A stretch of 64,000 bases of DNA, from IMG/VR virus record IMGVR_UViG_3300037459_000123; one strand, written 5' to 3'. The notes under the pieces are model-generated. The model did no database searches. It saw nothing but the letters and a program-made list of their open reading frames with translations, and was not told the DNA's origin. This stretch comes from an uncultured virus (IMG/VR IMGVR_UViG_3300037459_000123) (Duplodnaviria; Heunggongvirae; Uroviricota; Caudoviricetes). The translations under genes and the position numbers were made by a program. Shown piece by piece: positions 15,701-38,940 of this stretch (the first letter of the stretch is position 1; every line of letters begins with the position of its first letter).

Positions 15701-17636
15701 GAAGAGCTGGTCGCGGTGAGCCGCAAGAGCGCGGAGGGCGTCATCCTCGCTGCACTTGAGGCCGGGCGAGATGCTGAGCGGGAGCGGTGCGTGGGGGTCA
15801 TTGACGCGCTGGCGAAGGCCCAAGCGGGCTCGTCTAGTGGCTTTCAGAGTGCGTTGGGGGCTGGAATGTTTATGGCCAAGGACGCCCTCCGCACCACCGA
15901 GCAGCCCGAGGAGTCCGATGATTGAAGAGACTAGCAAACACGGGGGAAGGCGCGTCCAGCAGTGCGGCATGTTTCGCGACAAAACCGTCTGCCTTTGGTG
16001 CGATGCAGAGGTGGACAACTCCGAGGGGAGGGAGGCTATCGCTGCATTTCTGCGTGTGCATCCGCACGATTGCGAGCAAAATGGGGGCGGCGATGAGTGA
16101 ATGCGAAGATTGCGAGGAGGAGATCCCCGCGAACCAGCGGCGACAGCGCTGTAAATGGTGCGCTCTGCTCATTTGCGCGTGGTGTTTTCATCATGTCCAC
16201 AATGGGCAGCATCGCCCGAAGCCGCGATTGGTTGAGTCACCTGAGGGGAAGGTCGCTAGTGGAGCCTGACGAGTTCGATAAGGCGGCGGGCGCGGCTTGT
16301 GGCTGTGTGCTGTGCTTGGGCAACGTGGGTGGGACGCGCAAGCTGTGCGACGTTGGTGAGCGTATCCTTGCCTACGGGGTAGCCCAACGTCAGGTCGGGG
16401 CGCTGGCAGTGATGAGCGCGCTTTCCGATGGGCAGGTTGAGAGGCTTCGCCGCGCTCTCGCCGATGGGGAGGTCGACGCGATAATGCTGGAGCGAAAGCG
16501 CGGCATCGAAGTCGTCGAGGCGTTAGTGCCCCACGAAATGAGCAAGTCAGAGGCCCGAGGCTGGCTATGGGGGAAGGTCGACTCTCTCCGCGCGCTGCGC
16601 GAACCTACGGAGCCGCCGTAATGGACAGTTGGTTAAAAAAGCACGGGGGTGATGTGGCGTTTTGCATCTTCATGAGCATTGCCGTGGGCTGTTGTACAAC
16701 CTGTCACGGCCTCGATAGGTGGCGGGCCGTGGAACGGGACCGTCATGAACTTCGTTTGCAGAAACTCAACTGTGCACCTCCCACGGAGTCGGAGTAATGG
16801 AGCCTGACGCCAGGAAGCTGACCGTTGCCCAACTCGAAAAGGCAATAGAGTCTGACCACATGCACCCGGAGATTCGCCCGGACGGTACGGTCATCATGCA
16901 TGACAAGCCGCTGCCTGAACCACGCATGAGCCAACGTCGTCCAACGGTGGAGGAGTTGGAGGATATCCTTGCCGACCCCGACAATCCCGCCGAGTGTGAA
17001 CGGTGGGCCAAGAACGCAACGCCCAAGGAAATCGCCAACTACATCAAGCGCCTCCAGGACGCCCTCGACGCTGCGCGGGAGCAAAGGACGCCAGATGGAA
17101 CCTGATGAGTTCGACAAAGCCGCCGAGTTGGCTGTCCACCTAGAGACCCGACAGGCGAGCATCTTGCGGCGTAAGATCGTTGACACTGAGCGCCGCTGGG
17201 TGGTGCGCGCCGGGTTCCGATTTCACTACCACAACAACGGACCATTGACGCGGGACGAGGCCAACAAGCTGGCCGACGACATCCTCGCGATCATCGACGA
17301 AACCAGGCAACAGCAGAGGGAGCGACAGCCGTGAAAATATGCCCACAGTGCGGGTCAGCCGAGTTCAAGATCCAGATGCGGGAGGTCGCCGCGTTCCTGG
17401 GAGTCAACCGCGAGATCCAGGTCTCGGGGATGATGTCCGTTGAGGCGTGCGCGGGAGTCGACGGGGCCAAGTGCGACTACGTCAATGTCCCGTGGTCCTA
17501 CAAGTGGGGCGATCCGCTGTCCATTACGGTCAAGCGCCCGCCCCCGCCGGATGCGCCCAAACCCAACAACAGCAAGCGGAAAAAGCCCAAGGACAAGAAG
17601 CCGAAAAGGCCCAAGCGCAAGAAGCCAAAGCGGTGA
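12734..17636 (+). other. Run of ~16 small hypothetical ORFs, mostly coupled (12734-13153, 13161-13781, 13791-14132, 14132-14320, 14320-14742, 14742-14957, 14954-15286, 15279-15581, 15578-15925, 15918-16100, 16093-16269, 16259-16621, 16621-16797, 16797-17105, 17095-17334, 17331-17636)
   Basis: Near-continuous tiling with overlapping stop/start codons; several Cys-rich; no family recognised. Confidence 0.65.
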
Positions 17637-17669
17637 TTTTGCGGAGGTCGGCTAGCGCATGCTAGGCTG

Positions 17670-18308
17670 ATGCCCATGGCGCTCAGCGAAGCCGAGGTTG
17701 ACGAGGCACTGGCCGAGGACACTGAGTCCGTTGTGCCGCTGGCTGGAGTGGGCCTAGGAGGCACGGGCCCCAAGCCCCCACCTGTGGTACCGGCCGAGGC
17801 GCGCAAGCGCCGGGAGGTTGTCTCCAAGCTGCTGGCGACCGGTGTCTCAGACGACGGCATCATCCTCGTGCTCGGCAAGAAGTTCAACGACGACGGTACT
17901 GAGGGCATGAACCTGGCCGAGTCGACGGTCCGGAGTTTGATGTCTGAGGTACGTAAGGCGTGGAAGACCGAGGATGATGTGCGCGCCGAGTTCTCGAAGC
18001 CCGCTGCCGTGCGCCGTCATCTCGACCACATCCGCAAGGCGTCACGGAAGGGGGCTTATAACGCGGTCGCGATGCTGGAGTCGAACCTGATGAAAATCGA
18101 GGGCAACGCCAGCCCGATCCGTGTGGACATCGGTGGGGACATCCGATTGACCTCCGCAATTATGCACGTCCTCGGGGAGTTCGATGAGGGTAAGGTCCGC
18201 GAATTGGTCGACGGTGAGCGTGAGCGCCTGATGCCAAACGCCCCAAAACAGGCACTTCCAGCCAAGGTTGTATCCAGCCGGGTCAAATCCGACCCCCCGG
18301 CCCCATAA
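17670..18308 (+). CDS. terS: Putative terminase small subunit
   Basis: HTH-like segment (VSKLLATG..LAESTVRSLM) followed by helices and KIEGNASPIRVDIGG, a TerS-like layout; not adjacent to terL. Confidence 0.5.
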   Translation: MPMALSEAEVDEALAEDTESVVPLAGVGLGGTGPKPPPVVPAEARKRREVVSKLLATGVSDDGIILVLGKKFNDDGTEGMNLAESTVRSLMSEVRKAWKTEDDVRAEFSKPAAVRRHLDHIRKASRKGAYNAVAMLESNLMKIEGNASPIRVDIGGDIRLTSAIMHVLGEFDEGKVRELVDGERERLMPNAPKQALPAKVVSSRVKSDPPAP

Positions 18309-18314
18309 TGGGGC

Positions 18315-19354
18315 ATGCGCAAGGTCATCCAGCCGGAGCCTGACCCGTCGTCATCCGACCAGGTGGTGGCCTCGCTCGTTGAGCAGGGCATCGAGCTACC
18401 TGAGGGCCTCCAGGGCGGGCGCGGGCATCAGGCGGTGAAGCTGACCGAGGAGCAGGCCAAGGAGATCATGGCGCTTCCACCTGCTGAGCGATTCGCCAAG
18501 GTCGACGAGGTGGTCAAGCTACAGGCGGCCGAGAACATGGAGCGCATCAAGGACTTCATGCTGCGCGTCCAATTGAAACAGTCCAAGGCGGCCGAGAAAC
18601 GTCGAGTGGTGAGCAACGACAAGTCCAAGCGCCGGGCCAAGAACAAACGGGCGCGTCAGGCACGGAGGAAGTGATGGCTGAGGCTCAACTCAAATCGGTG
18701 AAGTGCAAGACGTGCAACGACACGCGGCGACTGGACGTCGGAGAGTGTACTTGCCAGAGCAAGATCGAACACGAACCGGGCTGTGGGGTCATCGAGTGCC
18801 CCGACTGCCCACCCGAGGAGACCAATGAGCAACGATAAGCAGAGCAGGCCGTCTCCCGAGTCCAGCAACGTGCTGTACGATCACAAGCGCGAGGTCGTCG
18901 CTCAGGTCCGGCTGTACATGGAGGAGTTGCAGACGTTCAACTCGGCGGCTGCGGCGCGGGTCGATGCGCTGATCAAGGAGATGGAGTTCAAGGGCAATCG
19001 TGACGGCTACGCCGAGGCGTCAGCAGACCATCGTGCGCTGATGCGGCGGGACGATGACGAGGCGCTCTACAAGCGAGGCGTCGAGGACGGCGTAAAGCAG
19101 GAGCACGACCGACTCCAACAGGCGATCAAGAACGCGGCGGCTGAGCCATGAGGCACTTCTTGGCGTTGGCCCTTCCGATTTTCGTGGCGGCCGGGTTGTT
19201 TATGGCGGTGATCGTGTTGACGTCGAGTGCTCAGCAATCGCCGACGCAGATCGAGCGGCTGTCTCAGGCCATCGACCGCAACACCCGCGCGAGCAAGGAA
19301 CACACACGAGCCGTCCAGGCGCTTGAACGGACGGTGCGCGCGTCGTGCCGGTAG
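18315..19354 (+). other. Four small ORFs (18315-18674, 18674-18838 Cys-rich, 18825-19151, 19148-19354 with TM helix plus coiled coil)
   Basis: Coupled ORFs; CCCCATAATGGG promoter-like motif upstream. Confidence 0.55.
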
Positions 19355-19362
19355 GAGTAAAC

Positions 19363-19653
19363 ATGTTTACCCCGTTCGCACTGGACCTCGTCACGGGCCA
19401 TGTCGCAGATCATGCGTCCTGGGTCGACCCGGTGAACCCGAGCACGTCCGTCTATCTGTTGGGGCGCGCGATCACGGAGGTCTCCAAGCGCAAGGTCAGT
19501 CTCGTCTCGATTAGCATGGATCGACTCGATACCGACGGCATGGTGGATGTCAATTTGGAGATGGGCAGCAGCCGCAAATATCACTTCGCGATCAGTTGCA
19601 TGATGGCGTTGGACGAGGCGGCGGAGGCGGCGGTCAAGTCGTTTCGGTCGTGA
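19363..19653 (+). CDS. Leader-array protein 1 (MFTPFALDLVTGHV)
   Basis: Shared N-terminal motif; ATG lies within the GTAAACATGTTTAC palindrome. Confidence 0.75.
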   Translation: MFTPFALDLVTGHVADHASWVDPVNPSTSVYLLGRAITEVSKRKVSLVSISMDRLDTDGMVDVNLEMGSSRKYHFAISCMMALDEAAEAAVKSFRS

Positions 19654-20162
19654 GCACCAAGGTCTATCCGACAGGCACGATTCAACTAGGAGACGGTGAG
19701 CCCATCGACATCGCCGAGTTGACGATCGATCTTTTGGGGCCGAACGTGATGATCCGAGCATTCGCTATCAACCTGGAGAGTGGGGAGGTTGAGGTCGTCG
19801 AACAGCATACTTGGGAGGACTTTGATCGCGTTCAGTGTGTTGGTGAAGCGATGCACCACGCCAACAGAGGCGACCCGATCAAGGTCGAGAATGACACCAG
19901 GGTTAGCCGGTTCATTGCAGGTGGTGCTGTCAATGACGAGGATGAAATGGTGACGCTGCCGAGCGGCGATTCCAGGATTGCGTATCCTGCGCTCACGACC
20001 GAGTACGAGGTCCGCGAACTCAAGGACGAGACGCTCCTTTGCTGTTATTGCCGTGAGTCAATCGGCAACCTGTTGGACCTCAAAAATCCGACCCTCGAAT
20101 TGATCCGCAAGTGTCAGTGTGGGCAGATCAACGCGTTCAAGCTCGTCGGGTTATCCCTCTGA
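19650..20162 (+). CDS. Leader-array protein 2 (motif MIRAFAINLESGEV at 19749; C-terminal Zn ribbon)
   Basis: Motif in frame, either internal or at an alternative start 19749. Confidence 0.7.
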   Translation: MSTKVYPTGTIQLGDGEPIDIAELTIDLLGPNVMIRAFAINLESGEVEVVEQHTWEDFDRVQCVGEAMHHANRGDPIKVENDTRVSRFIAGGAVNDEDEMVTLPSGDSRIAYPALTTEYEVRELKDETLLCCYCRESIGNLLDLKNPTLELIRKCQCGQINAFKLVGLSL

Positions 20163-20443
20163 TGGCGCTCCCGATTGCGCCATTCGTGCTCGACCTCGAA
20201 ACAGGCGAGATCTCCGAGCACCCGCGAACGCCTGCATGGCGCCGTAGTCCTTTGATGGTTGCGTACCGCAGGGACATTGACATTCAGTGCGCGCGCTTGG
20301 GCATCGAGGTCGAGGAGGTCGTGGTCGACGGCAAAGTCACCCATCTCGATGAGGCAACTGTGGACTTGCTCAAGCAGGTCGCTGCGACACTCGCCAAGAA
20401 GGAAAAGCTACCGTCCGATCCCGAGCGATTGGAGCCGCCGTGA
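20162..20443 (+). CDS. Leader-array protein 3 (MALPIAPFVLDLETGEI)
   Basis: Shared motif, TGATG coupling. Confidence 0.75.
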   Translation: MALPIAPFVLDLETGEISEHPRTPAWRRSPLMVAYRRDIDIQCARLGIEVEEVVVDGKVTHLDEATVDLLKQVAATLAKKEKLPSDPERLEPP

Positions 20444-21066
20444 TCGCTTCGTTCGCTATCGACTTGGAGACCGGCAAGTCAGAGCGCCTCTACCCTCGGG
20501 ACGACTGGCTGTCGGCGTCGCATCAGCGCGCCTACTCTATGCATCTCGACGAGGTGCTCAAGAACTGCACGGACGACGCCTACCGAGTGGCAGAGGTCAT
20601 GCAGTCGTGTCCAACCGAGGTTTCGTTCAAGGTCGCCAACGGGAGCGAGTCGACTGTGATCACGATTGCAAGCGAGACACCGAATGCGCTCAAGGTCACC
20701 ACCCCCGAGCACATGACTCAAACGGTGCTCCACGAGTTGCAAAAGACGGAACACTGGCTCGGTGGCATTCGGCCGATCTCTCCGAACGTGCGACAGGCTC
20801 CGGCGTTCTGTGGGTGTTTGAGTCTCGTGCGAGTTGACCGAACGTGTCACGCCTGCCGCAAGGACGGCTGCAAGCAGTGCATGGAGATTGTGGACATCGG
20901 CAACAACACCAAGTCGCCGCAGTGTAAGGACGAGGACGATTGCGTCCCCGCCAACCGCGTGACACCGCCGCCTCCACGGGTATACCTGGGGATGGACTAC
21001 GCATTGAAACGAGGCGGGCGTGTGGTTGGCCGTGGGCGCGCGATCAGCGCCAAGGTGAAGCCGTGA
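20440..21066 (+). CDS. Leader-array protein 4 (MIASFAIDLETGKS), Cys-rich
   Basis: Shared motif, GTGA overlap. Confidence 0.75.
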   Translation: MIASFAIDLETGKSERLYPRDDWLSASHQRAYSMHLDEVLKNCTDDAYRVAEVMQSCPTEVSFKVANGSESTVITIASETPNALKVTTPEHMTQTVLHELQKTEHWLGGIRPISPNVRQAPAFCGCLSLVRVDRTCHACRKDGCKQCMEIVDIGNNTKSPQCKDEDDCVPANRVTPPPPRVYLGMDYALKRGGRVVGRGRAISAKVKP

Positions 21067-21410
21067 TCATTCCGTTCTACATCGACCTGGAGACCGGCGA
21101 GAGCGACACGCTGATCCTGGACTTTTTTCCGACGCCTGCATTCGTAGAGGACGCCATGGCCGATCTGATGAAGGGCCACGAGGACGCGCTCGCTCAGTCG
21201 ATCAAGATGCAGATCAACACGACACCGCAGGCGCGCAGCGGAGCCCCGATCAAGTCGATGGTGATTCACCACTCCGGCACGAGAGCCTCCGGTGTTGCCG
21301 ACGCCATGGCCAACGTGCTCAAGGCGCGCAAGCATTTTGGTGTGGACTACGCCATCGACACCGAGGGCAACGTCCTCAAGTTTGAGCCCAAGATCGTCGA
21401 CAACAAATGA
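21063..21410 (+). CDS. Leader-array protein 5 (MIIPFYIDLETGES) with amidase-like fragment
   Basis: Shared motif; MVIHHSG..DYAIDTEGNV. Confidence 0.75.
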   Translation: MIIPFYIDLETGESDTLILDFFPTPAFVEDAMADLMKGHEDALAQSIKMQINTTPQARSGAPIKSMVIHHSGTRASGVADAMANVLKARKHFGVDYAIDTEGNVLKFEPKIVDNK

Positions 21411-21721
21411 TCACGCCGTTTCGGATCAACCTGGTGACGGGGGCAGTTAGCGAGCGCGATCCTGATTGGATGGATCTGCCGTCGGAGGGGAGGACTCGGC
21501 GGCAGTTGGATCGGATTCGGCGCAAGCTACAGGACATGGTTCCGGCCCACACATTGGTGTCGGAGGTTATTCTCGACGATGACATCGTGAAGGCGCAAGT
21601 AGTGGGTGCGCCGGGACATGAATTGGCGGCCCAATACAGGCTCTCCCGCGATCGGCCTCATCATACCGACGATGTTGTGCGCGGCCTGTTTGCTGGTTTC
21701 AAGAATGCGATGTCAAGATGA
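21407..21721 (+). CDS. Leader-array protein 6 (MITPFRINLVTGAV)
   Basis: Shared motif, ATGA overlap. Confidence 0.75.
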   Translation: MITPFRINLVTGAVSERDPDWMDLPSEGRTRRQLDRIRRKLQDMVPAHTLVSEVILDDDIVKAQVVGAPGHELAAQYRLSRDRPHHTDDVVRGLFAGFKNAMSR

Positions 21722-22344
21722 TCGGCCCGTTCGTCATCGACCTGGAAACGGGTGTGGTCACCCAGCGCTCCGACGAACTGATGTCCGTAGGTCAAGAGCC
21801 GTGGGTTGTCCATCGCCTCGACTCACTGCCCAGATTTGAGGTTCGATCATCCAACACAAACTTTGATCGGGCGTCAGGCACAGGGGACACGAGAATCCGA
21901 GCTTTCGATACCCATCACGGTGCGGAGGTCGACGTCTGCATGCGCTGGTCTCTGGAGAACTCGAAACTGAACGTGGCCATGATGTTCGCTCAAGCGTTCG
22001 CCGATCCCGAGAAAATCGCCAAGCAGATGACTAAGCCGCCGACCAAGCTGCCGGTGATCACCGATCTCAGCTACGAGCGCACCACACAACCACGATCAGC
22101 GCTCCAGCGAGCCGTTGCTAAGTACGTGCCGAACCTTCCGCTGATCAGCACGCCTCCGCAGGGGTTCAACTGTCGATCGGTCGTCAACAAGCTCGACCTC
22201 GGCAAGATCAGGGTTGACGTCAAAAAGACGTTTCCGCCGCTGGTCGTCAGGGCGTTTCCTCCGCGGGCTTTCCTACCGGTGAAGCTCGATCCGGCCGTGA
22301 TCAATGCCGAGATCTCCAAGCTGTTGTCGGGAGACGAGGAGTAA
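21718..22344 (+). CDS. Leader-array protein 7 (MIGPFVIDLETGVV) with MuF-like PPQGFNCRS motif
   Basis: Shared motif, ATGA overlap. Confidence 0.75.
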   Translation: MIGPFVIDLETGVVTQRSDELMSVGQEPWVVHRLDSLPRFEVRSSNTNFDRASGTGDTRIRAFDTHHGAEVDVCMRWSLENSKLNVAMMFAQAFADPEKIAKQMTKPPTKLPVITDLSYERTTQPRSALQRAVAKYVPNLPLISTPPQGFNCRSVVNKLDLGKIRVDVKKTFPPLVVRAFPPRAFLPVKLDPAVINAEISKLLSGDEE

Positions 22345-22346
22345 AC

Positions 22347-22442
22347 ATGTTTACTCCGATCGAGTTGAGTCCGTTGGGTTCGGCAGCCCTGTTGATCGTG
22401 ATGTTCCTGCTTGGGGTGATGGCTGGGAGACCTTCGCAGTGA
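22347..22442 (+). CDS. 31-aa hydrophobic peptide (MFTPIELSPLGSAALLIVMFLLGVMAGRPSQ)
   Basis: GGAG RBS and ATG inside the palindrome; stop overlaps the next GTG start. Confidence 0.55.
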   Translation: MFTPIELSPLGSAALLIVMFLLGVMAGRPSQ

Positions 22443-22918
22443 TCATCCCGTTTTCGATCGATCTCGTCAGCGGTGATCTCTGCATGACGACGCAAACGCT
22501 GGCCGAACTCAAGAGGGCCACACATCTCGTCTGCCGAGATGCCACCAACGAGGATTTGAGGACGTTCTGTGGGTTCAATCCATCGGCCGTGAACTTCAAG
22601 TTCAAGCTCACGTCGGATTGGGGAGAGGCGACATGCAGGAGATGCCGATCGGAGGCGATTGAGGATGAGGACGACGATTTGGTAAACGTGACGGTACAGA
22701 ATGTGCCGATGGGCTACACGTCGGCACAGGCCAGGGGAACCGTCAAGGCCGGTCAGATGGTTGCGGCGAATCCAAACGGGACGGTCTCAGCGGCGCAAGC
22801 TGATCCTACGACGTCCGTGGTGATCGACCGATTGTTGCGAGATGACGATGAGGACGAGGGCGACGACTACGATCCGGATGATTGGTACGACGACCCTGAT
22901 GAGGATACCGACTTGTGA
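22439..22918 (+). CDS. Leader-array protein 8 (MIIPFSIDLVSGDL)
   Basis: Shared motif; TFCG..TCRRC; acidic tail. Confidence 0.75.
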   Translation: MIIPFSIDLVSGDLCMTTQTLAELKRATHLVCRDATNEDLRTFCGFNPSAVNFKFKLTSDWGEATCRRCRSEAIEDEDDDLVNVTVQNVPMGYTSAQARGTVKAGQMVAANPNGTVSAAQADPTTSVVIDRLLRDDDEDEGDDYDPDDWYDDPDEDTDL

Positions 22919-23229
22919 TCGCCTGGTTCGCAATCGACCTAGAGAGCGGTTTGGTGTCCATTCTCGGTCCGCAACGGTCGCTAAAGTGGGTGGACGACTT
23001 TTCGACCAAACTCGCTAAGCGGCTTGGTGACGATGTGCGAGTGGCGGGTGTCTCCTACGACCCTGATCGACACAATGGCCTGATCACCTGTGACATCATT
23101 GAGGGTCTCCAGCAGAACGATGCGTTCCCGGTCAGGGTACAAGTCGGGCGAGTTGCGTATCGGTCGGTGGAGACGTTGGTGGCGAATGCGGTCAACAGTT
23201 TTCGTAACTATGTGAGGCCGGACGAGTGA
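22915..23229 (+). CDS. Leader-array protein 9 (MIAWFAIDLESGLV)
   Basis: Shared motif, GTGA overlap. Confidence 0.75.
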   Translation: MIAWFAIDLESGLVSILGPQRSLKWVDDFSTKLAKRLGDDVRVAGVSYDPDRHNGLITCDIIEGLQQNDAFPVRVQVGRVAYRSVETLVANAVNSFRNYVRPDE

Positions 23230-23564
23230 TCGAGTGGTTCGCCATCAACCTGGAGACGGGGGAGGTCCAGAACGGTCGCTGGCTGATCGATGTTGCGCAG
23301 CCACTCGATGACATGTTGCCTACGGACATGCACGTGACTGCGATTCGGCACGATAGGCGGACGCGTGGAGAGCAGTGCGTCGGCACTATCACTGTGGAAA
23401 TTAACGAGCAGGGCAAGGAGTTCGAGGTTTCCACAACTACGGCATCGGTGACCCTGGAGCATGCACTGCTGATCGAGTTGTTTCACAAGGTGATGGGATC
23501 AAAAGATCGGAAGCGCAATGCGCCGCTGGGCTCCAATTTGCCGATGCAGGATGTGAGCGAGTGA
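23226..23564 (+). CDS. Leader-array protein 10 (MIEWFAINLETGEV)
   Basis: Shared motif, GTGA overlap. Confidence 0.75.
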   Translation: MIEWFAINLETGEVQNGRWLIDVAQPLDDMLPTDMHVTAIRHDRRTRGEQCVGTITVEINEQGKEFEVSTTTASVTLEHALLIELFHKVMGSKDRKRNAPLGSNLPMQDVSE

Positions 23565-23797
23565 TCGCCCCGTTCAACATCGACCTCGATACAGGTGATG
23601 TCGAGGAGGGCAGGCGCATTCATCAGCAGAGGGTCACGTTTGATTCGAGCGTTGTCCCCAAGACTTGGTGTGGGATGTCGTTCATCAAGATGGCACTCGG
23701 CGGCGAGATTGTGGCGACCGATGGAAAGCCCAACTGCGAGCGCTGTCGAGAGGCGTTGGATTTCCACATCAAGAAGGCGACGGAATACGCGGCGTGA
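23561..23797 (+). CDS. Leader-array protein 11 (MIAPFNIDLDTGDV)
   Basis: Shared motif; TWCG..NCERC. Confidence 0.75.
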   Translation: MIAPFNIDLDTGDVEEGRRIHQQRVTFDSSVVPKTWCGMSFIKMALGGEIVATDGKPNCERCREALDFHIKKATEYAA

Positions 23798-24147
23798 TCG
23801 GGCCATTCGCCATCGATCTCGACACCGGCAAAGTTTATGACCGGTTTCCGCAACCGAATCGACTGTGGCCGGGTCGATGGATTCGTGAGGTCATGGCGGA
23901 GCTTCAGAAACGTCTCGGATCGGCGGCGCATGTGCGCAGTGTTGAACAGGTGGGGGGAGCAATATATGCGACTATCAAACCGCCGTTCAACGCCGACCAA
24001 TGCAAGATCATGATCCAAACTCCGGGCGAACACACCAACATGGGAGCCGAGGCTGTGACGGGGTTGCTGAACGCCTACGATGAGGTACTGAGGGCCATGC
24101 CCCGAGGCCAACGCATGCGCAAATTTCTTGACGGGACCAACGAATGA
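23794..24147 (+). CDS. Leader-array protein 12 (MIGPFAIDLDTGKV)
   Basis: Shared motif, GTGA overlap. Confidence 0.75.
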   Translation: MIGPFAIDLDTGKVYDRFPQPNRLWPGRWIREVMAELQKRLGSAAHVRSVEQVGGAIYATIKPPFNADQCKIMIQTPGEHTNMGAEAVTGLLNAYDEVLRAMPRGQRMRKFLDGTNE

Positions 24148-24410
24148 TCGAGCGATTCGCCATCGATCTCGAAACTGGCAAGATCGAGGTCACTCTGCCA
24201 TCGCTCAGGTCTCCCGTGTATTTGATTGCCGATGATCTCGTCGATCCGCCGCCGATGACCCCACAGCAACAGACCAAGATGCTCAGGTGGTTCGAGGAGA
24301 CGATGAAGGGCAGGACAAAAGCGGACGCGACGATTCAACATACCGCCACCCGCAAGCGCAAACAGACAGCCCGACAGAAGGCCCTGAGACGCATGCGTCG
24401 CGGAAAGTGA
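24144..24410 (+). CDS. Leader-array protein 13 (MIERFAIDLETGKI)
   Basis: Shared motif; basic C-terminal tail. Confidence 0.75.
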   Translation: MIERFAIDLETGKIEVTLPSLRSPVYLIADDLVDPPPMTPQQQTKMLRWFEETMKGRTKADATIQHTATRKRKQTARQKALRRMRRGK

Positions 24411-24766
24411 TCGTTCCGTTCTACATCGACCTGGAGAGCGGCAAAGTCGACGATTATCGAGGGCTGCACATGTTCGGGCGCTCGGAGGGCGGCGAGGAGT
24501 TGTACATCTGGAAGTTTGACGATTCACGGTTAGCTCGGCTCGTCTACGTGCTCGCAACCGATGCGTCCGAGGCGTGGCAGTACGTCATGTTGGGTTGCGA
24601 CGATCCCTATGATCAGGCACCGACCAAAGTCCCCTGTACCGAATGGAATAAACTGGTTGGTCATCGAGTGATGGATCCGAGGTCGATCCGGCTCGTGCAT
24701 GCGGCTAAATCGGTGCTCGACCAGTTGGGGACTGGATTCATCGGCTATGCGGAGCGACTGCCGTGA
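24407..24766 (+). CDS. Leader-array protein 14 (MIVPFYIDLESGKV)
   Basis: Shared motif, GTGA overlap. Confidence 0.75.
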   Translation: MIVPFYIDLESGKVDDYRGLHMFGRSEGGEELYIWKFDDSRLARLVYVLATDASEAWQYVMLGCDDPYDQAPTKVPCTEWNKLVGHRVMDPRSIRLVHAAKSVLDQLGTGFIGYAERLP

Positions 24767-24969
24767 TCACCCCATTCGCCATCAACCTGGAGAGCGGTAA
24801 GGTTGAGTTTCACATGTTCGAGATGGACGTGTTCTGTCCGTGGTGCGCAGCCAAGCCCGGCGAGCGATGCACACAACTCGCGAACGAGCGCGAGGTGGGT
24901 TCGAGCATGTGGTGGCACAGCGCCAGAACGCACGCACTGGATGTCAGGTTACGAGCAATGAAACAGTAG
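24763..24969 (+). CDS. Leader-array protein 15 (MITPFAINLESGKV), Zn finger
   Basis: Shared motif; CPWCAAKPGERC..HSAR. Confidence 0.75.
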   Translation: MITPFAINLESGKVEFHMFEMDVFCPWCAAKPGERCTQLANEREVGSSMWWHSARTHALDVRLRAMKQ

Positions 24970-25008
24970 GGGACGATTTCGACCTCCAGGCCCCATAATG
25001 GGCTTGAG

Positions 25009-25269
25009 ATGATCCACCCGTTCGCCGTCGACCTCCGATCAGGGCAGGTATTTTCAAACGTCATCATCCATTCGTGCGTCACGCCGACCATGACGTGGTG
25101 TGGGAAGGATCGAGCGCGCTTGAACTATGTGACCGGCGAGGATTCGACGAGTATCGGCCCTCGCACCACTTGTCACAAATGTCGGTTGGAGAGCATGTGG
25201 GCCCGTATGCGCGACTGGTCGCACATCGCCGACAAAGTGATCGATGCTCACGCTGGGGCTTTCGAGTGA
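25009..25269 (+). CDS. Leader-array protein 16 (MIHPFAVDLRSGQV)
   Basis: Shared motif; TWCG..TCHKC; own promoter-like motif upstream. Confidence 0.75.
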   Translation: MIHPFAVDLRSGQVFSNVIIHSCVTPTMTWCGKDRARLNYVTGEDSTSIGPRTTCHKCRLESMWARMRDWSHIADKVIDAHAGAFE

Positions 25270-26198
25270 TCGAACCGTTCGCACTCGACATCAGAAGCGA
25301 CGAATCCAACGACGTGGCCAAGGACGGGTTTGTCCTGAGCGGCATCGAGTGGGATCGGCTGCGTGTGCTGGATGTCGACTGTGCTCACTCGAAGCTTTGG
25401 GAGTATTGGGTCGAGTGCCCGAAGTGCGTCAATGGGTTTGACGGCCTCGGCAACGCGGTGTGTGAGTGCATGAAAGACAGTTGGCCTGGTCATCAGATTC
25501 ACAAAGGCCACCAAAAGCAACTCTGGCGACCTGACGAGGCGAGTGCAGAGTGCCGACGTTGCAAGGCCAAGGCGGGGGACCCGTGCAACCCTAAGCCGTT
25601 CGGCAAATCCGAGTTTCATCCGGAGCGGGTACATCAGGCCATGGCAGCAGCCGCCACTGCAAATCGAAAAGCGAATGCAGTCTCGAAATCCGTCGCGGTT
25701 GATCCGCAGAACGCAGAGAGCGTCCCATGCGGGATTTGTTTGGCGGCTGCCGGGGTGCCGTGTCGCAGCGGTGTGGTCATCATACCGCCGCATCAGGCTC
25801 GCAAAGTGCGGTTGCAGATGGAGTCGAAGAAACAACAGGGCCAACCGAGCACGGCGCTGGATGTCAAATGTACGTATTGTGCGGCGCCTCCAGGAGTGCG
25901 ATGCAGCAACCACATGAACCGAGGGCCCGGGCCGGTCAAGTTTGTCGAGCCGCATGGCGTAAGACTGCACGACGCATCTGAGGAGCGAAGCGACTCCGAC
26001 AAAAAGCTGGAAGCGATACTCCAGGGCCTCGGAGTGACGAATGTCGCCGATGCCACCAAACGCATTCAAGACATCGCCCTGAACTCAACCCGCCAGTCAG
26101 TACCACCCCCACAGGGACAACTACCCGAACCACTACAGACCCAACGGGACAAGCAACGCGAACGCATAAGAAAGCTCGGACAGTACGGAGTCGAGTAG
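25266..26198 (+). CDS. Leader-array protein 17 (MIEPFALDIRSDE), multiple Zn fingers
   Basis: Shared motif; three CxxCxAxxGxxC..HxxR repeats. Confidence 0.75.
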   Translation: MIEPFALDIRSDESNDVAKDGFVLSGIEWDRLRVLDVDCAHSKLWEYWVECPKCVNGFDGLGNAVCECMKDSWPGHQIHKGHQKQLWRPDEASAECRRCKAKAGDPCNPKPFGKSEFHPERVHQAMAAAATANRKANAVSKSVAVDPQNAESVPCGICLAAAGVPCRSGVVIIPPHQARKVRLQMESKKQQGQPSTALDVKCTYCAAPPGVRCSNHMNRGPGPVKFVEPHGVRLHDASEERSDSDKKLEAILQGLGVTNVADATKRIQDIALNSTRQSVPPPQGQLPEPLQTQRDKQRERIRKLGQYGVE

Positions 26199-26410
26199 AA
26201 CTACAGGCCGTTATTGCGCAGGTTCCCCTCTAAGGGAGCCCAGAACAGGGGATTGCCAAGCGTAGGGGCTCACGAGAGGGCCGAGAGGGGCCAGGAGGTA
26301 GGACGACGTGGTGAGGGGAAGCCAGGGAGGCACCGAGCGACCTGTGAAAACCGACCCTCTCACGAGCGACCGGACGGCCACGCTGGGCGTCGATTCTGTG
26401 CTGGATGTCC

Positions 26411-26445
26411 TGGACAGCGGCGCAAGCATGCGCTACTGTTAAGAC
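26411..26445 (+). promoter_or_regulatory. Sigma70-like leaderless promoter with palindromic operator (copy 1)
   Basis: TGGACA-17-TACTGT, GCGCAAGCATGCGC in spacer, ATG at 26446. Confidence 0.7.
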
Positions 26446-26760
26446 ATGGACAACGCAAACAGCATGAACATCGCCAACGAAATCCGCCGCCAGGTCGGCC
26501 CCCGCGCTTTCGCCATGATGGGCGCCAAGAACCTGCTCGGCAGCGAGGACAGCTTGCAGTTCAAGATTGGCCGCAACGCCAAGCGCGTCACCCACATCCG
26601 GATCACGCTGGACCCCTCCGACACCTACCGCGTCGAGTTCATCCGCGTAGGCCGCGCACCGATGTTCAAGACCACCCCGGTTGCCGATTTCGACGGCGTC
26701 TATGCCGACTCGCTCCACACGCTCATCGAGGGCAACACCGGGCTCTACTTGAGCCTGTAA
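26446..26760 (+). CDS. Conserved small early-type phage protein of unknown function
   Basis: LQFKIG..RITLDPSDTY..GVYADSL..TGLYLSL pattern recalled from phage hypotheticals. Confidence 0.75.
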   Translation: MDNANSMNIANEIRRQVGPRAFAMMGAKNLLGSEDSLQFKIGRNAKRVTHIRITLDPSDTYRVEFIRVGRAPMFKTTPVADFDGVYADSLHTLIEGNTGLYLSL

Positions 26761-26799
26761 GAAATCGACATCCACCACGTCGATTGTGGGTGACATCAG

Positions 26800-26834
26800 T
26801 TGACGCCAGCGCAAGCATGCGCTACTGTTAAGAC
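26800..26834 (+). promoter_or_regulatory. Leaderless promoter/operator (copy 2)
   Basis: TTGACG-17-TACTGT; 39 bp identical to copy 1 (26420-26458 = 26809-26847). Confidence 0.7.
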
Positions 26835-27173
26835 ATGGACAACGCAATCGAAACCGCCGCAACCATCGCCCGCACCCTGACACCGGGAACCAACGTCACC
26901 ATCAAGGTCGTTTCCTTCAACGACTATCGGGGCATCAAGGCAGGCACCCGATTGGTCTTCTCCATCGAAACCAATATTCACCAAAACAGCAAAGCCGCAC
27001 TGGCCATCCTGAAGACCTTCCGCTCAAACTTCATCAGCGCACTTTCGGACACGGCCAAGGCCGGACTCCGAACCCACGGCCGCCACACCTTCAACCGCGC
27101 CGGATTCTGGAACATGGGTCAGTTCGACACAACAGCCTGGAACACCACAATCAAAACAGCCAACGAGGGGTAG
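26835..27173 (+). CDS. Hypothetical early protein
   Basis: Starts directly after promoter copy 2. Confidence 0.65.
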   Translation: MDNAIETAATIARTLTPGTNVTIKVVSFNDYRGIKAGTRLVFSIETNIHQNSKAALAILKTFRSNFISALSDTAKAGLRTHGRHTFNRAGFWNMGQFDTTAWNTTIKTANEG

Positions 27174-27729
27174 GGCCCCGAACCTGACATCGAGGGGGCA
27201 GGGGGTGATCACCATCAACCTAGGGCGAGCCGACCCAGGCGAGCCTCCTGACGTCACCCGGCTGACTCCCCGAGCGACAACCACAGGGAGGACACGTCGA
27301 CCCGTTGAGCGCCCTCAGACCGGGCAACCGGGGGTAGGGGTACGGACGTCACCACCAAGGCCAGGGGTAAACATGTTGCCTCCTCGGAGAGCCAGCGAGT
27401 GGGGCCAGGTCAGCAGGTCTGTGCTCGACATCGACGAGGGGCAGGTCGAGGGGGTACGACCGGGGTAGGGGGCGAAAAGCACTAATGGGTCTGGAGCGCG
27501 GCCCGGCACCCCACCCTCAACGTCCCGAACCCCCCTACGAGCCGCCGACAAATCTCCCCCCGTGCCCGGACATCCACCACAGCAATAGAAGCCCGCCCCA
27601 CGTACCGGCCCATCCTGTGGGTGCGTCATGCCGCTGTCCGGACTGGGGGCGGGCACCTTGTTTGTCGAATCCCGCGCTCCGGATGAAAGGGGTCCCGGTC
27701 GATTTGTCGAAAAAAACTCCCGGAACCCC

Positions 27730-27764
27730 TTGTAGGCGGCGCATGCTTGCGCTAGTATCTAGAC
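27730..27764 (+). promoter_or_regulatory. Leaderless promoter/operator (copy 3)
   Basis: TTGTAG-17-TAGTAT, GCGCATGCTTGCGC, ATG at 27765. Confidence 0.65.
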
Positions 27765-28192
27765 ATGGACGCAACGCAAAACCTCCGCAACGAATACAAG
27801 GCTCTCTCCACCGCTTGCGCGGACAGCCCTGCCACTTTCAATCGCCAGGTCGAAAGGCTCCTGTCGAAGCTTGATGATGGCGAGGCACCCCGGCGGTCTC
27901 CCTCCCGCTACCTCGAAGCCGCACGCGAGGTAGCGTTCTGCGAGTACAAGGTGGATTACCGGGAGTTGGTTTCATGAACAAGCAACTCCTACACATCAGC
28001 AAGCTCACCACCGCTCGCGTGTTGGCGGACCACCCGGAACTCCGCGACCTGACGGCGCGCAAGAACGCGGCTTTTGTTGCCATGCGCAACGCGGACGGGA
28101 TTCCGGAGTTCACTCGCCTGCACAGGGTGGCCAAGCCGCTCTGCATCGAATGGGACGGCCGAGTCAAGGCGCACTACAGCGTAATCGTTTAG
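27765..28192 (+). other. Two small coupled ORFs (27765-27977, 27974-28192)
   Basis: Downstream of promoter copy 3, ATGA overlap. Confidence 0.6.
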
Positions 28193-28499
28193 GAGGCTCG
28201 GCAATGTGGTACGGTCGTCGGTATGACGCCGCCCGACTACACCCATCTCGCCGACAACACGTTGCAGCCCTTGCCCGCCAAGAAGCGAAAGCAGCCTCGC
28301 GTGCGCCCGGTGCGAGTGCAGAGCAAGTCCAAGAATCAGCGCAAGGCAGAACGCCGCTTGCGCGCGGCCTGACCCCCCGGGGTACTTCAATCGGGGGGTG
28401 GGTTCTGAAACCCGTGCCGGTTCTCGAATGCGCGAGCTTTTTTCTTCCGGTCGCTCACGAGGCGGGCCGATTTCAGATGGTCGGCGCCATAACGGGTTG

Positions 28500-29096
28500 A
28501 TGACAACGCTCGACGACTTTCAGGCAAAGCTCAGGACCGCCATCGCACTCCACAGCACGAAACGAGTGGCGGAGGCGTGCATGGTTGCGGAAAAGAAGCT
28601 GCACCGGTGGGCGAATGACAAAACTACTCCGTTACCTGACCGGTCGGCCCGCAGGGAGTTCCTAAAGAAGATTCGCAACCTGAAATTGGGCGAAGCCTCC
28701 GACAAGTCAGCCCGCGAGGAGTTTCTCGAACGTAAAGTGGAGTTTTGGAAGGGTGTCGCGCGGGAGCACGGTTTCGAGGGGGAGTTTCTCGGCGAGGAGG
28801 TGATTGAGTACGAGCGCAACGTGCTCGACCCTCTGATTCTCAAGTGGATGAAGCGGTGGGAGCTAACCAACCAGGATGTTAGTGGCCCGGCGCAGGACGA
28901 CCTCATTGATCGCATCAGCCAGGAGGTCGCGGCGGTGCGCCGGTTCATTCAGGAGTGTGTCGACTCTGTACCGGTTGCACCGCCCGTTTCCTTGGACCAC
29001 ATCGAGGAGTTTTTCGTGTCGCGTACTCATGTCAAGGCGGCCATCAACACGCAGCGCGAGCCAAAGGGCCGTGAGGCGTCGGAGGCGGTGGGCTGA
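28500..29096 (+). CDS. HTH-domain protein
   Basis: STKRVAEACMVAEKKLHRWANDKTTP HTH-like segment; CCATAACGGG motif upstream. Confidence 0.5.
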   Translation: MTTLDDFQAKLRTAIALHSTKRVAEACMVAEKKLHRWANDKTTPLPDRSARREFLKKIRNLKLGEASDKSAREEFLERKVEFWKGVAREHGFEGEFLGEEVIEYERNVLDPLILKWMKRWELTNQDVSGPAQDDLIDRISQEVAAVRRFIQECVDSVPVAPPVSLDHIEEFFVSRTHVKAAINTQREPKGREASEAVG

Positions 29097-29431
29097 TGGG
29101 AGTTGCGGTTTGCGAAGTGTGCGGCGAGCCGCCGAGGTACGAGCAGCGTTGCGAGCACTTCAGTCACTACCCGCATCCTCATCTCCACGTTTACGAGGTC
29201 GGTGCGGATCTATCTTCGGGTCTTGTGGAGCGCAAGCATTGGCAAGAGGCCATCCGCGAGCGGGACGAGGCGCGTGAGGCAGCGGGTACGGTGGCGTGTG
29301 TCGGTCCGTGGATGTGGTCGTCGGTGGATGACAACGACCTGGACAGCATGGGCGAGGGGATGGTGGTCTCGATGACGGCGGGGACTCTACGCCAGCTTCT
29401 CGCCAAGGCGTCGGAGGCGGTGGGCTGATGG
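29074..29431 (+). repeat. 26 bp direct repeat (29074-29099, 29406-29431) flanking ORF 29096-29428
   Basis: AGGCGTCGGAGGCGGTGGGCTGATGG occurs twice. Confidence 0.85.
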
Positions 29432-30838
29432 TGTTTCTCCACGGAGGGGTTCCGTGCCCCGTCGACCTGGCTGCTGTCGTCGCAGTCCTACCCGGGGCGC
29501 TCGCGGTGTTCTGGTACGCTCGGGCCGTTGTCAGGGGATGGTTCGGCTGATGGGCTGGTTAGTCGTGATTCTGTTTGCACTGCTGCTACTCGGCGGTAGG
29601 CGCGGCGGCGGTTGTACCGTAGTGCCGTCCCGATTTGGCTGTGTTCGGCCGCCACCCCCGGCGCCCATGCGAGGGGAGGGCAGATGAGTTGCATCCACAG
29701 CAAGCAAATCCGAGGCATCTGCGAACACTGTAACGTGCCCGAGATGGAGGCGGTGCTCGACGGTGGTGGTTCGCATTGGTGGTTGTCATTCTGTGACCCC
29801 GGGGCGCCCGTCGGTCAGAAGTTTTTGGGTTGCGTCATCACCGGGCCTGCATACGATGTCGGCGGTGCGGCGAAATGTGCCTGGAAGGTTGGCTGCAACC
29901 CGGGCAAGGAGGTTGTCGGTATCGCCGTCCCCATAACGGCGACGATTCCCGAGGAGTACACCGATCGTTTGCTCACCAAGGATGAGGCAGCCGCGGTGGA
30001 TGCAATCTGGGAAAAGGAACACGGGCCGGTGCCGTCATGATGAATCTCCGGATGTCCGCGGTCGCCGAGTGCCACTGGTTCGGGTGCTCGAAGTTCTGTG
30101 GCATCGAAGTCGAGGTTGAGCCAGCAATCGACACGGCCCGCATGGCGGAGCATGTACTCGACCACCCGGATGAAGGGTTCGCACTCACGATGACCATCCG
30201 GTCGGTCAAATTGTGCTCGGATGAGATGCGCGATGGGTGGGAGTTCGACGGTGAGCGCGTTACGTGCCCCGGTCACGTGGGGGTGGGGAAGGACCAGCCG
30301 GGCTGATGGGAACTCTAACCTACGGGCAGGACATCACCCTCACGTTCAGTCTCAAGAACGGAGCCACGCTTGTGATCTACCCCCGTGGGGAAATCGAACT
30401 CGGAGGGCGGCCGCTAAGTGAGCATCCTATCGCCCTCGGGACGTTCGTTCTCCGGTTCGCTGCTGAATGGGCGAAGGGACAATCGACATTGGAGATGGAA
30501 GGGCCGAGCGTGGGCTGATGGAAGTGGAGACCCTCAAGCTGGACAACATTCTTGAGAACCTCCGCGACCTGCGCCTCTGGGCCGGATTGCCTGGCGTTCT
30601 CCGGCTCGACGTCAGAGCCGGAGGGACCTGGCTCATGTATCTGGTGCTCGGGCACGTGTACTCCACGCCTATCGTCATCGACGCATTCGCGAGCGTGTCG
30701 GCATGCTGCAACGAGATCAGACGGTGGGCGGTTGCCAAGCATGGGGAGGCGATCCGGGCCAACCGGATTCTCCACGATGAGCACGCGCGGCGCTGCGTTG
30801 ATTTCTGGGGGGCCGATTCACGTGCCCTGGCGCCATAA
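29096..30838 (+). other. Coupled small ORFs (29096-29428, 29428-29550, 29550-29687, 29684-30040, 30037-30306, 30306-30518, 30518-30838)
   Basis: TGATG/ATGA overlaps; two are short TM peptides. Confidence 0.6.
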
Positions 30839-30844
30839 CGGGAT

Positions 30845-31783: not shown

Positions 31784-31932
31784 TGTTTCTCGACGGTAGT
31801 TACCCGGTTATCTTCACGGACAACCCCTGGCTGAGCGGGTTTGCGTGTGGCCTGTTTCTCGGGTGGCTTATCTTCAACGACTGATGGACTGAATCGCTTG
31901 ATCTCCGCGCTTGAACGCAGGACAACAGGGAT

Positions 31933-37218: not shown

Positions 37219-38940
37219 ATGGGACGGCGGGTCATCGAGCGCAAGCGTCGCGGTCGGAGGGTAGTCCAGCGGAACGGTAAGCGACTGGCGCCGTTTGCCC
37301 TCGACATCAGGCGGGACCCCGGCATGCCTACCGATGTCGAGTTGGCCACCCGCGCGATCATGCGTTTGGCGGAGGAGGCCCGCCACGACCTCTCCAAATT
37401 CTACGCGTTTGTGATGCGCAACGAGTTGACGCGGGAGCCGCTGACTCCGGCGCCGCATCAAACGGTGATGTTCTCCTTTGTCGAGAACCACGATCGGTGT
37501 GTGTTCCGGCAACCAATCGGAACGGGTAAAACTTTCGGGATGGCGGCGGTGACGCTGTACCTGATGGGTGCGGACATCACCCAGCGCGGCGCGGTCATCT
37601 CGAAGGCCAGGCACCAAGCGAGCAAGGTGCTCGGCATGGTCAAGGATTACATCACGGAGCCGTCGCTCAATGCGCGCCTGGCCCTCGTGTATCCGTGGCT
37701 CAAGCCCTCGCCGCGGCAGGGCGACCCGTGGACCCAGTCGCAGATCACCATCGAGCGCCCGCCCGGGATTCGTGACGCCTCCCTCGTGGCCGTCGGTGTG
37801 GATGGAGCCATCGCCGGGTCCCGTATCTCGTGGCTCGTCACGGACGACGTCATCGACGACGAGAACACCAACAGTCCGCAGGCGCGGGACCTCGTCCAGT
37901 CACGATTCGACGGTCGGTTGATGGCACGTCTGGACCCACTCGGATCCAAAGCGGTGGTCACCAACACACCCTGGCATCGGGAGGATCTGACCTACCACCT
38001 GGAGGAGAACGCCGGATGGCCGACCCTCACGATGGACATCTACGGCAACATCCGCGTGACCAATGCCGAGGGGTCATGGTTGGCGGAGGCGGAACGCACG
38101 ATGCTCCGATGGAGCAAGACGCGGCCCGGGTGGTACAGGCTCAAGGCGCACGATCCGGATCCCGATGAGGAGATCCCGTTGTGGCCTGCGCGTTATCCAC
38201 TCTGGCGCATCCAGGAGATTCGCCACGGCAAGCACGGCCAGGGTGGGATGTTGCCTCATGAGTTTGCACGCCTATTCCTGTGTCAGCCGTTCGACGAGGG
38301 AGCCGCGCGCTGTCAGCGTGATTGGATCGAGCGGTGCAAGAAACGCGGTGTGGGGACAACGTTTGTTTCTCGGTATGACGGGAACGAACCGACATTCACC
38401 GGTATCGACCTCGGGATCGGACAGAAGATCAAGCACGACAAAACGGTCCTGTTCACATTCGCGATGGAGCGGGACGGTAGTCGCCGCATTCTGGATATCG
38501 AGTCGGGTCGGTGGGACGGTTTCACCATCGTCAAGAAGCTGATCAGCAAACACGACAACTACAACTCTTCCGTCGCGGTCGAAACTGTCTCTGCTCAGGA
38601 TTGGCTTCGCCAGTGGGCGCTCAAGACTCGGAAGGATTTGATCGTCCGTGCTCACATCACTGGCGCGGACAAGCGCAGTCTCGATTTCGGAGTGGAGTCC
38701 ATTTTCAACGAGTTGCAAAACGAGGCGTGGATCATCCCGTGCGACGACGATGGCAAGTGTCACCCCGAGGTTCAGATGTGGATCGACGGGATGCTGTACT
38801 ACCAGCCGCCTCCGGCGCACACGGCGGATCACCTGATGGCGTGTTGGATTGCCCGCGAGCGCTCGCGCAAATCTGGGCACAAGGACCCGCCGCCCAAGAC
38901 TCAGCGACGTTTGGAGATGTCCAACACGGCCGGGTTTTGA
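37219..38940 (+). CDS. terL: Terminase large subunit
   Basis: PIGTGKT Walker A, WLVTDD Walker B, NTPWHREDL, TGIDLG nuclease motif, DHLMACW; upstream of portal. Confidence 0.9.
   Translation: MGRRVIERKRRGRRVVQRNGKRLAPFALDIRRDPGMPTDVELATRAIMRLAEEARHDLSKFYAFVMRNELTREPLTPAPHQTVMFSFVENHDRCVFRQPIGTGKTFGMAAVTLYLMGADITQRGAVISKARHQASKVLGMVKDYITEPSLNARLALVYPWLKPSPRQGDPWTQSQITIERPPGIRDASLVAVGVDGAIAGSRISWLVTDDVIDDENTNSPQARDLVQSRFDGRLMARLDPLGSKAVVTNTPWHREDLTYHLEENAGWPTLTMDIYGNIRVTNAEGSWLAEAERTMLRWSKTRPGWYRLKAHDPDPDEEIPLWPARYPLWRIQEIRHGKHGQGGMLPHEFARLFLCQPFDEGAARCQRDWIERCKKRGVGTTFVSRYDGNEPTFTGIDLGIGQKIKHDKTVLFTFAMERDGSRRILDIESGRWDGFTIVKKLISKHDNYNSSVAVETVSAQDWLRQWALKTRKDLIVRAHITGADKRSLDFGVESIFNELQNEAWIIPCDDDGKCHPEVQMWIDGMLYYQPPPAHTADHLMACWIARERSRKSGHKDPPPKTQRRLEMSNTAGF

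Follow-up and report, generated by a model that had tools for sequence, protein, structure and literature searches.

A tandem array of 17 small genes (m1 to m17), all on the + strand between positions 19363 and 26198 of a 64,000-nucleotide stretch of the uncultured tailed phage IMGVR_UViG_3300037459_000123 (the window), encodes proteins of 68-310 amino acids (aa), each carrying a leader of the form M-I-x-P-F-x-I-D/N-L-E-T/S-G-x-V. We read the array as a lineage-specific family in which this leader, a predicted hairpin, serves as a common docking surface for a putative partner, a reading to which we give a probability of about 0.5. The leader is 70-90% identical between copies, as against less than 25% for the bodies behind it. 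With silent sites that are saturated, this points to a constraint that is common to the members and absent from the bodies, and we infer that what is shared is a binding surface, in the form of an exposed hairpin. The preliminary description of this DNA had not recognised the array as a described system, and it was right in this: no Pfam, PHROGs or NCBIfam family covers it apart from PF24623 in two members, and literature searches found no paper with IDLETG in its full text and none on a tandem array of this kind.

The 17 leader peptides lie on the + strand where they had first been placed. A six-frame regular-expression search over the 64 kb returned these leaders and nothing else, confined to 19363-25310, and a 16-position hidden Markov model (HMM) of the leader, run against all stop-to-stop frames of the window, agrees, with 17 matches at 18.8-30.1 bits and 4.2 bits for the next best. 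All 17 open reading frames (ORFs) have a coding-type GC profile, with GC contents of 0.64-0.83 at third and 0.37-0.51 at second codon positions, like the terminase, portal and sheath genes. Placement of the leader at the N-terminus holds for most members; it is not at the extreme N-terminus in m3, where three residues precede it, or in the long form of m2, where 33 do. Tolerance of such a prefix would be expected of a structural or binding element more than of a signal that depends on a free N-terminus. A degron, a secretion signal and a clamp-binding motif were considered and set aside, as no feature supports them and m3 and the long form of m2 need no free N-terminus. Resemblances to two enzyme motifs, Exo I of the DEDD exonucleases and the first HAD phosphatase motif, were also rejected as family assignments, since no exonuclease or HAD family of Pfam matches, position 10 is variable and the proteins are too short.

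Conservation of the leader reaches residue 14 (Val or Ile in 13 of the 17), and a tryptophan falls within residues 15-40 in 14/17 members, where 23% would be expected (binomial P 3e-7). The shared part thus includes residues 13-14 and a nearby Trp, and the notion of a bare 12-aa tag on wholly unrelated cargo has to be given up. Position 10 is Glu in 10 of the 17, Val in three, Asp in two and Arg in two. The proposal that selection acts on the leader peptide is borne out. Information per base has a three-base period, third positions of codons 9-12 holding 0.19-0.74 bits and first and second positions 0.84-2.0 bits. Where two copies have a residue in common, their codons at successive positions from 9 to 14 agree about as often as codon usage predicts: 42/120 (32-33 expected), 25/50 (32-35), 20/66 (18-19), 37/120 at Gly12 (34), 11/21 (14-15) and 17/59 (20-21). 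Replacements are conservative (D/N, T/S, I/L/V). Saturated silent sites together with conservative replacements indicate old copies that gene conversion has not homogenised and that selection maintains at the peptide level.

The leader begins at the first base of each ORF except in m2 and m3. The array opens with m1 (19363..19653; 96 aa; leader MFTPFALDLVTG, 28.9 bits), which has an alpha/beta-type body and aligns lengthwise with m9. In m2 (19650..20162) the leader MIRAFAINLESG starts at 19749, which would give 137 aa; a long form of 170 aa starts at GTG 19650 in a GTGA overlap with the m1 stop and is the one used in the public gene call (P0014). Its C-terminus has a CxxC...CxC motif. The next gene, m3 (20162..20443; 93 aa; P0015), has its true ATG at 20162 and reads MALP-IAPFVLDLETG, the leader running from residue 4/5 (20171). 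It is followed by m4 (20440..21066; 208 aa; MIASFAIDLETG), with 10 Cys, m5 (21063..21410; 115 aa; MIIPFYIDLETG), m6 (21407..21721; 104 aa; MITPFRINLVTG), again with an alpha/beta-type body, and m7 (21718..22344; 208 aa; MIGPFVIDLETG). The GTG-started m8 (22439..22918; 159 aa; MIIPFSIDLVSG) combines an FCG...CRRC motif with a very acidic tail (net charge -21). After it come m9 (22915..23229; 104 aa; MIAWFAIDLESG), modelled as hairpin-alpha-beta-beta-beta-alpha, m10 (23226..23564; 112 aa; MIEWFAINLETG) with an alpha/beta-type body, m11 (23561..23797; 78 aa; MIAPFNIDLDTG) with a WCG...CERC motif, m12 (23794..24147; 117 aa; MIGPFAIDLDTG), also of alpha/beta type, m13 (24144..24410; 88 aa; MIERFAIDLETG), whose tail is basic (isoelectric point, pI, 10.7), and m14 (24407..24766; 119 aa; MIVPFYIDLESG). 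In m15 (24763..24969; 68 aa) the leader MITPFAINLESG precedes a PF24623 zinc domain at residues 23-58 (E 8e-8), m16 (25009..25269; 86 aa; MIHPFAVDLRSG) has a WCG...CHKC motif, and in m17 (25266..26198; 310 aa) the leader MIEPFALDIRSD is joined to three PF24623 stretches (E 2e-20).

The bodies fall into at least three classes, one of them probably a single diverged domain, and the earlier picture of a leader on unrelated cargo survives to that extent: there is an alpha/beta kind that has no zinc motif, a PF24623 kind (m15 and m17) and a Cys-motif kind (m8, m11 and m16, with [WF]CG...CxxC in common). PF24623 (Phage_zn_bind_8, Pfam gathering cut-off 24 bits) scores 32.3 bits in m15 and 72.7 bits in m17 and is absent from the other 15 members, in which no Pfam family reaches its cut-off; PHROGs families were likewise found only in m15 and m17, and NCBIfam families in 0/17. 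The PHROG profiles of the PF24623 domain span 46-66 positions and do not contain the leader; the best of them (phrog_17918), of 46 positions, matches m15 at residues 21-60 only, behind the leader. When the first 12 residues were removed and all members compared with BLAST, m15 and m17 matched at 1.7e-5, three pairs at 0.004-0.012 and the rest at 0.025 or above; m8, m11 and m16 are joined by the weak links of 0.004-0.012 (m11-m16, E 0.004).

At least five members (m1, m6, m9, m10 and m12) appear to share one small alpha/beta body, since a Trp-helix, a set of three strands and an amphipathic helix at the C-terminus can be aligned along their length. The leader-trimmed profile of m9 and m12 aligns with that of m1, m6 and m10 at an hhalign P of 9e-4, with a probability of only 23%. 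An AF2 model of m9, made with eight paralogues, has strands at residues 4-7 and 14-17, a helix at 24-37, three further strands and a helix at 82-100 (predicted local distance difference test, pLDDT, 65.8; predicted template modelling score, pTM, 0.54). Its nearest fold analogues are HPF/YfiA, at VIA Z 6.0-6.7, where a Z below 8 can mean a common arrangement only, with a root-mean-square deviation (rmsd) of 2.8-3.8 A over 80-87 residues (18-104), and T7 gp1.2 (Foldseek E 0.04). The ESM Atlas gave no usable match for m9, and the alpha/beta profile met nothing below E 0.3 among PDB sequences. The model of m16, from a 5-row alignment, is uninformative (pLDDT 50.8), and a co-fold of two m9 copies, with a score of 0.00, counts neither for nor against binding.

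The family is private to this phage and very close relatives. A 36-residue profile of the N-termini, searched with HMMER against 1.84 billion representative proteins, matched 22 at E <= 0.001: 11 from the window itself, three orthologues and eight unrelated proteins. Seven of these eight were scanned, and four proved to be cadherin-repeat proteins in which each repeat is matched once, at profile positions 4-20. The three orthologues come from two short public contigs, one of 1 kb with an orthologue of m7 (P0002) and one of 1,114 bp with those of m13 (P0009) and m15 (P0011). Similar arrays, for which a search had been suggested, were found neither in IMG/VR nor in metagenome contigs or GTDB genomes. 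In IMG/VR, strict leader DNA patterns had 0 matches, and the peptide pattern [PRS]F[AYV]IDLET matched 23 stretches, none of which was confirmed. A 38-bit DNA pattern that recovers 12/17 copies matched 22 metagenome loci and 24 loci in 185,579 GTDB species genomes, once each. These were rejected as arrays and are read as chance, 14 of the 22 metagenome matches lying in frame inside longer unrelated ORFs.

The wider group of phages was covered as well. The terminase clade comprises 295 proteins at E <= 1e-10, and 119 listed homologues, besides the window's own, are 51-67% identical, on contigs of up to 96 kb. From the 25 IMG/VR loci of this clade 10 whole records were searched, six of them at least 90% complete, and the leader profile matched in 0/10; nor was the leader found at five IMG/VR loci with a homologue of the gene at 26446-26760. 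No other family with a shared N-terminus turned up in 30 loci with a screen that recovers 16/17 members in the window. A leaderless homologue of the alpha/beta body was not found among 5.8 billion proteins, all five matches being the phage's own.

We propose a multigene family that is specific to this lineage and whose products, small and non-structural, would be translated from one tightly coupled chain of genes. Each member would carry the same module, in which a beta-hairpin of two strands (the first I2-L9, the second from residue 13, with the turn E10-T11-G12 between them) is followed by a Trp within about 25 residues. The bodies may have diverged past recognition from one small alpha/beta domain, or have been replaced or extended by zinc-binding modules. 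The hairpin, as an exposed edge, would dock all members on the same partner by beta-sheet addition, and the variable bodies would supply different activities, such as nucleic-acid or host-factor binding.

The genes of the array are closely coupled. Four-nucleotide (nt) RTGA overlaps are found at 12 of the 16 leader-to-leader junctions, and with refined starts and a 31-aa ORF at 22347-22442 included, 14/17 junctions are at -4, one is at -1, one at +2 and one at +39. The exceptions are the 1-base overlap between m2 and m3, the end of m7, which is followed after 2 nt by a strong start element, and the 39-nt gap before m16. In the window as a whole 75 RTGA sites join + strand open frames of at least 60 codons; 14 belong to the array and 61 have no leader, among them the starts of the tail sheath gene (51313) and a sulfotransferase gene (11777), and this preponderance means that translational coupling as such can do without the leader. 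A small ORF with a transmembrane-like stretch directly precedes each sub-array: one at 19148-19354 (68 aa, MRHFLALALPIFVAAGLF...) before m1-m7, and that at 22347-22442 (31 aa, ...LGSAALLIVMFLLGVMAG...) before m8-m15.

Several repeats are associated with gene starts. A Shine-Dalgarno-like GGAG and an exact 14-bp palindrome GTAAACATGTTTAC (19357-19370) lie across the m1 ATG (19353..19370, + strand), and a second such element (22337..22442, + strand) consists of GAGGA, GTAAACATGTTTAC and the hydrophobic 31-aa ORF (MFTPIELSPLG...), whose stop overlaps the GTG of m8. The perfect, ATG-centred palindrome after GAGGA or GGAG has six copies in the window against 0.38 expected: exact ones at 7777-7790, 19357-19370, 22341-22354 and 41658-41671, and ones with one or two mismatches at 27367-27380 and 59362-59375. 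Copies start an SbcC-like gene (MFTRRITLHNW...), m1 and short ORFs (31, 31, 79 and 6 codons in length); within the portal gene there is one copy, in another frame. The element may combine a strong ribosome-binding site with an operator. A promoter-like repeat, ...GGCCCCATAATGGG, lies in the 39-nt gap before m16, 6 nt 5' of the ATG (24970..25002, + strand). It belongs with a 14-nt repeat, GGCSCCATAAYGGG, found 2-6 nt 5' of an ATG at 656, 18299, 24989, 28483, 30829, 32249 and 34405, with GGGCCGAT or GGGTCAAT about 14 nt further 5' (10 matches with at most two mismatches against 1.6 expected). This looks like a promoter whose -10 box (CATAAT/CATAAC) is so near the ATG that leaderless mRNAs would result. 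The array sits behind the copies at 18299 and 24989.

A second repeat, 18 nt in each copy, has a TTGACA-like hexamer, the palindrome GCGCAAGCWTGCGC and TAC..T, with 6-10 nt to the ATG, and is found at 26419, 26808, 27738, 36087, 36404 and 36905 (12 strand-matches against 0.3 expected). It begins right after the array and recurs just before the packaging genes; it may be a promoter class under separate (late?) regulation, the spacer containing an operator. The array is preceded by a different repeat class from the packaging genes, which suggests that its expression would be non-late. A scan of 16000-29000 for sigma-70 promoters and terminators gave nothing exceeding shuffles. The roughly 570 nt at 36360-36930, 5' of the packaging genes, contain no convincing ORF and three copies of the second repeat, and Rfam has nothing there. 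Two IMG/VR phages, L004 (15600-20315) and L003 (4400-14100), have repeated gene-start elements of their own (...CVEAKPR...MCMTTTTK in L004, MSPTKT in L003); both share the gene at 26446-26760 and a homologue of that at 27765-27977 with the window. This suggests that start-associated repeats are common in the wider phage group.

The contig to which the window belongs is 93,244 bp long and comes from an uncultured, myovirus-like phage whose tail is contractile. GC content is about 0.61. A single DNA sequencing run, labelled marine sediment metagenome and perhaps the source sample, contains the stretch; no RNA run that contains it was listed. There is no close relative among 50,697 isolate phage records: megablast of 19000-27000 and tblastn of m4, m7, m9 and m12 (E <= 1) had no match in isolate phages, and the large terminase finds matches of only 22-28% there. 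The array lies between DNA-metabolism genes and packaging genes. The former include a RecA/UvsX-like recombinase ORF of 789 aa (2996-5365) that is split by a LAGLIDADG homing-endonuclease (intein-like) insert; PF14528/PF14890 inserts are also present in several terminase homologues of the clade (~980 aa). Other recognisable genes are SbcC-like, RuvC-like, methyltransferase, ParB-like and baseplate genes. A phage-encoded sulfotransferase (11777-12673; PF13469, E 1e-21), next to the genes of the ParB-like protein and the methyltransferase, could serve to modify DNA or the host. The packaging, head and tail genes include a T7-type large terminase (37219-38940, + strand), a Mu-type portal with a MuF domain in a single 1131-aa ORF (39611-43006), whose linker is acidic, rich in Pro and Glu and contains His, a Mu gpI-like protease/scaffold (PF10123; 42892-44814), the major capsid protein (45376-46404) and the sheath (51313-52848). 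No tRNA genes were found, and Rfam gave 0 matches.

The only lead to the putative partner, and it is a lead rather than a finding, is the basic N-terminal arm of the large terminase (37219-37330). Residues 23-33 of this arm (37285..37317, + strand) read LAPFALDIRRD and are identical at 8 of 10 positions to the corresponding part of m17 (IEPFALDIRSD), sharing PFALDIR.D with three synonymous differences; such a match would arise by chance somewhere in the window with a roughly estimated probability of 0.01-0.05. In terminase homologues the N-terminus is basic, and a hydrophobic-x-hydrophobic-D/E-L motif comes after it, 36-49 residues before a conserved anchor. Many homologues have the motif at a fixed distance from the first conserved helix, and in the three closest it reads IEPFALEL, APFTIDL and INPFSIEL. 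Against 500 shuffles the leader weight matrix gives p<0.05 in 24 and p<0.01 in 10 of 84 homologues. The lead is weakened by the public gene call (P0026), in which the terminase start falls after the motif. The hairpin might be a portable copy of a terminase-arm docking motif, by descent or by convergence, so that the 17 proteins would bind at the arm's own site on the small terminase, the portal or another packaging factor. We consider this improbable. Were it true, interchangeable heads would serve packaging-coupled delivery or the control of packaging, a mechanism that has not been described in a phage.

Several results weigh against a docking hairpin. The leader HMM also picks ILDIESGRW, a conserved and buried-looking hairpin in the terminase nuclease domain; with the cadherin-repeat matches, this marks the leader as a generic strand-turn-strand sequence. 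The hairpin of m9 has a pLDDT of about 50 in the sole usable model, which for that reason does not tell an exposed hairpin from a buried one, and in the HPF/YfiA and T7 gp1.2 analogues the second hairpin strand belongs to the sheet as an ordinary strand, in keeping with a structural role. The leader is no better kept than the body when orthologues are compared, m7 and P0002 being identical at 11 of 14 leader residues. Codon identity at codons 2, 4, 5 and 7 exceeds the expectation from codon usage, mostly through one C-ending codon (105/120, 39/66, 106/136 and 79/81), so that there may be some nucleotide-level constraint at the very start of the leader. As to the terminase arm, its motif scores only 4.1 bits in the HMM scan of the window, in which an unrelated site scores 4.2 bits, and the profile-profile comparison is not significant (hhalign P 0.086).

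The main rival reading is paralogy alone, in which the hairpin would be the folding nucleus of one small domain that was duplicated 17 times and diverged fast elsewhere, with the zinc modules as later insertions or additions. The compact hairpin-alpha-beta-beta-beta-alpha arrangement predicted for m9, the lengthwise alignment of the five alpha/beta members and of their leader-trimmed profiles, the Trp near the hairpin in 14/17, the generic character of the leader and the lack of any leaderless alpha/beta homologue in the databases searched are all consistent with it. A structural constraint should, however, spread over the core, and the other core elements are unconserved, body identity being 14-28%; PF24623 is an independent domain family whose PHROG profiles lack the leader, the hhalign probability is low, and the model of zinc-type m16 says nothing either way. 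The resemblance to one diverged domain, named in the preliminary description as what would speak against a tag, appears in the subset m1, m6, m9, m10 and m12, and a Trp follows the leader in 14/17; PF24623 is confined to two members, and most BLAST pairs are at 0.025 or above. We regard paralogy alone as rather unlikely.

A special case of docking is an address tag for the capsid or the packaging machinery, by which the leader would bring its proteins to the prohead interior or the packaging motor for delivery with the DNA. A Mu-like head module with a protease/scaffold (PF10123) and a portal-MuF fusion, the leader-like motif in the terminase arm, and the strong charge of several bodies (from net -21 to pI 10.7) would suit such a role. 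Yet the repeat class before the array (GGCSCCATAAYGGG, at 18299 and 24989) appears to differ from that of the packaging genes (26419 to 36905), an invariant residue of cleavage type is absent, with Glu at position 10 in only 10/17, a distance of 11 kb separates the array from the head genes, and the motif is internal in m3 and the long form of m2; we think such a tag quite unlikely. Very improbable, in our judgement, is an expression element of which the peptide is a by-product, either a start region for termination-reinitiation without Shine-Dalgarno sites or a micro-homology for cassette shuffling. The RTGA overlaps at 14/17 junctions, where no conserved upstream motif is found, the excess codon identity at codons 2, 4, 5 and 7 and the other start-associated repeats of this phage would fit, but third positions of codons 9-12 hold little information, silent sites of codons 9-14 are saturated and replacements are conservative at the protein level. 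Conservation also runs to codon 14 with a Trp at variable distance beyond, many RTGA-coupled genes elsewhere have no leader, and the longest DNA runs common to copies are only ~13-17 nt.

The docking reading would unite 17 orphan genes, about 7% of the 93-kb genome, through one hairpin module under strong protein-level selection. Small orphan genes abound in phage genomes and rules that group them are useful; the array predicts a single shared partner, which would give one foothold for all 17 functions. With a partner that also receives the terminase arm, the phage would have a new way of coupling accessory proteins to DNA packaging. Should the hairpin be a folding nucleus and no more, the array would clearly illustrate how fast phage paralogues lose every other likeness. 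Study of the phage is limited in practice, since it is known from a marine-sediment metagenome alone and no host is known.

Among known systems the array would work most like the capsid targeting sequence (CTS) of T4, yet it fails one defining feature that was checked. In T4, the prohead protease cuts off the CTS at a site that contains Glu, (L/I)-x-E. The array leader has no invariant Glu in such a setting, and if E10 were P1, D/N8 would stand at P3, so that the analogy first drawn with T4 does not extend to this cleavage motif; Glu is at position 10 in 10 of the 17, and a Mu-like protease may cut a different site. The array differs further in that its module consists of a hairpin and a Trp and can follow a prefix, and in having 17 coupled genes far from the head genes. 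The likeness lies elsewhere: the CTS of IPI, IPII, IPIII and Alt is also a short N-terminal peptide on dissimilar small proteins from neighbouring, fast-evolving genes. In one review (PMC3012670) the T4 internal proteins are described as diverse defence proteins in which the CTS alone is conserved.

The local pattern of the leader is common to the cadherin repeat (F-x-I-D-x-x-T-G-x-I, PF00028), whose gathering cut-off of 28.8 is not reached (the best member is m10, 18.2 bits, E 0.0034). Unlike cadherins, the array proteins are single, small and of cytoplasmic type, and the likeness supports the hairpin conformation only. The cargo-loading peptides of encapsulins, with alternating hydrophobic residues, bring unrelated cargo to one groove of an HK97-fold shell, are mostly C-terminal and belong to cargo genes beside the shell gene; the leader of the array is likewise short, with alternating hydrophobics, but N-terminal. 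Lineage-specific expansions of paralogues in large phages likewise consist of tandem, diverged small proteins with one short motif and no database family.

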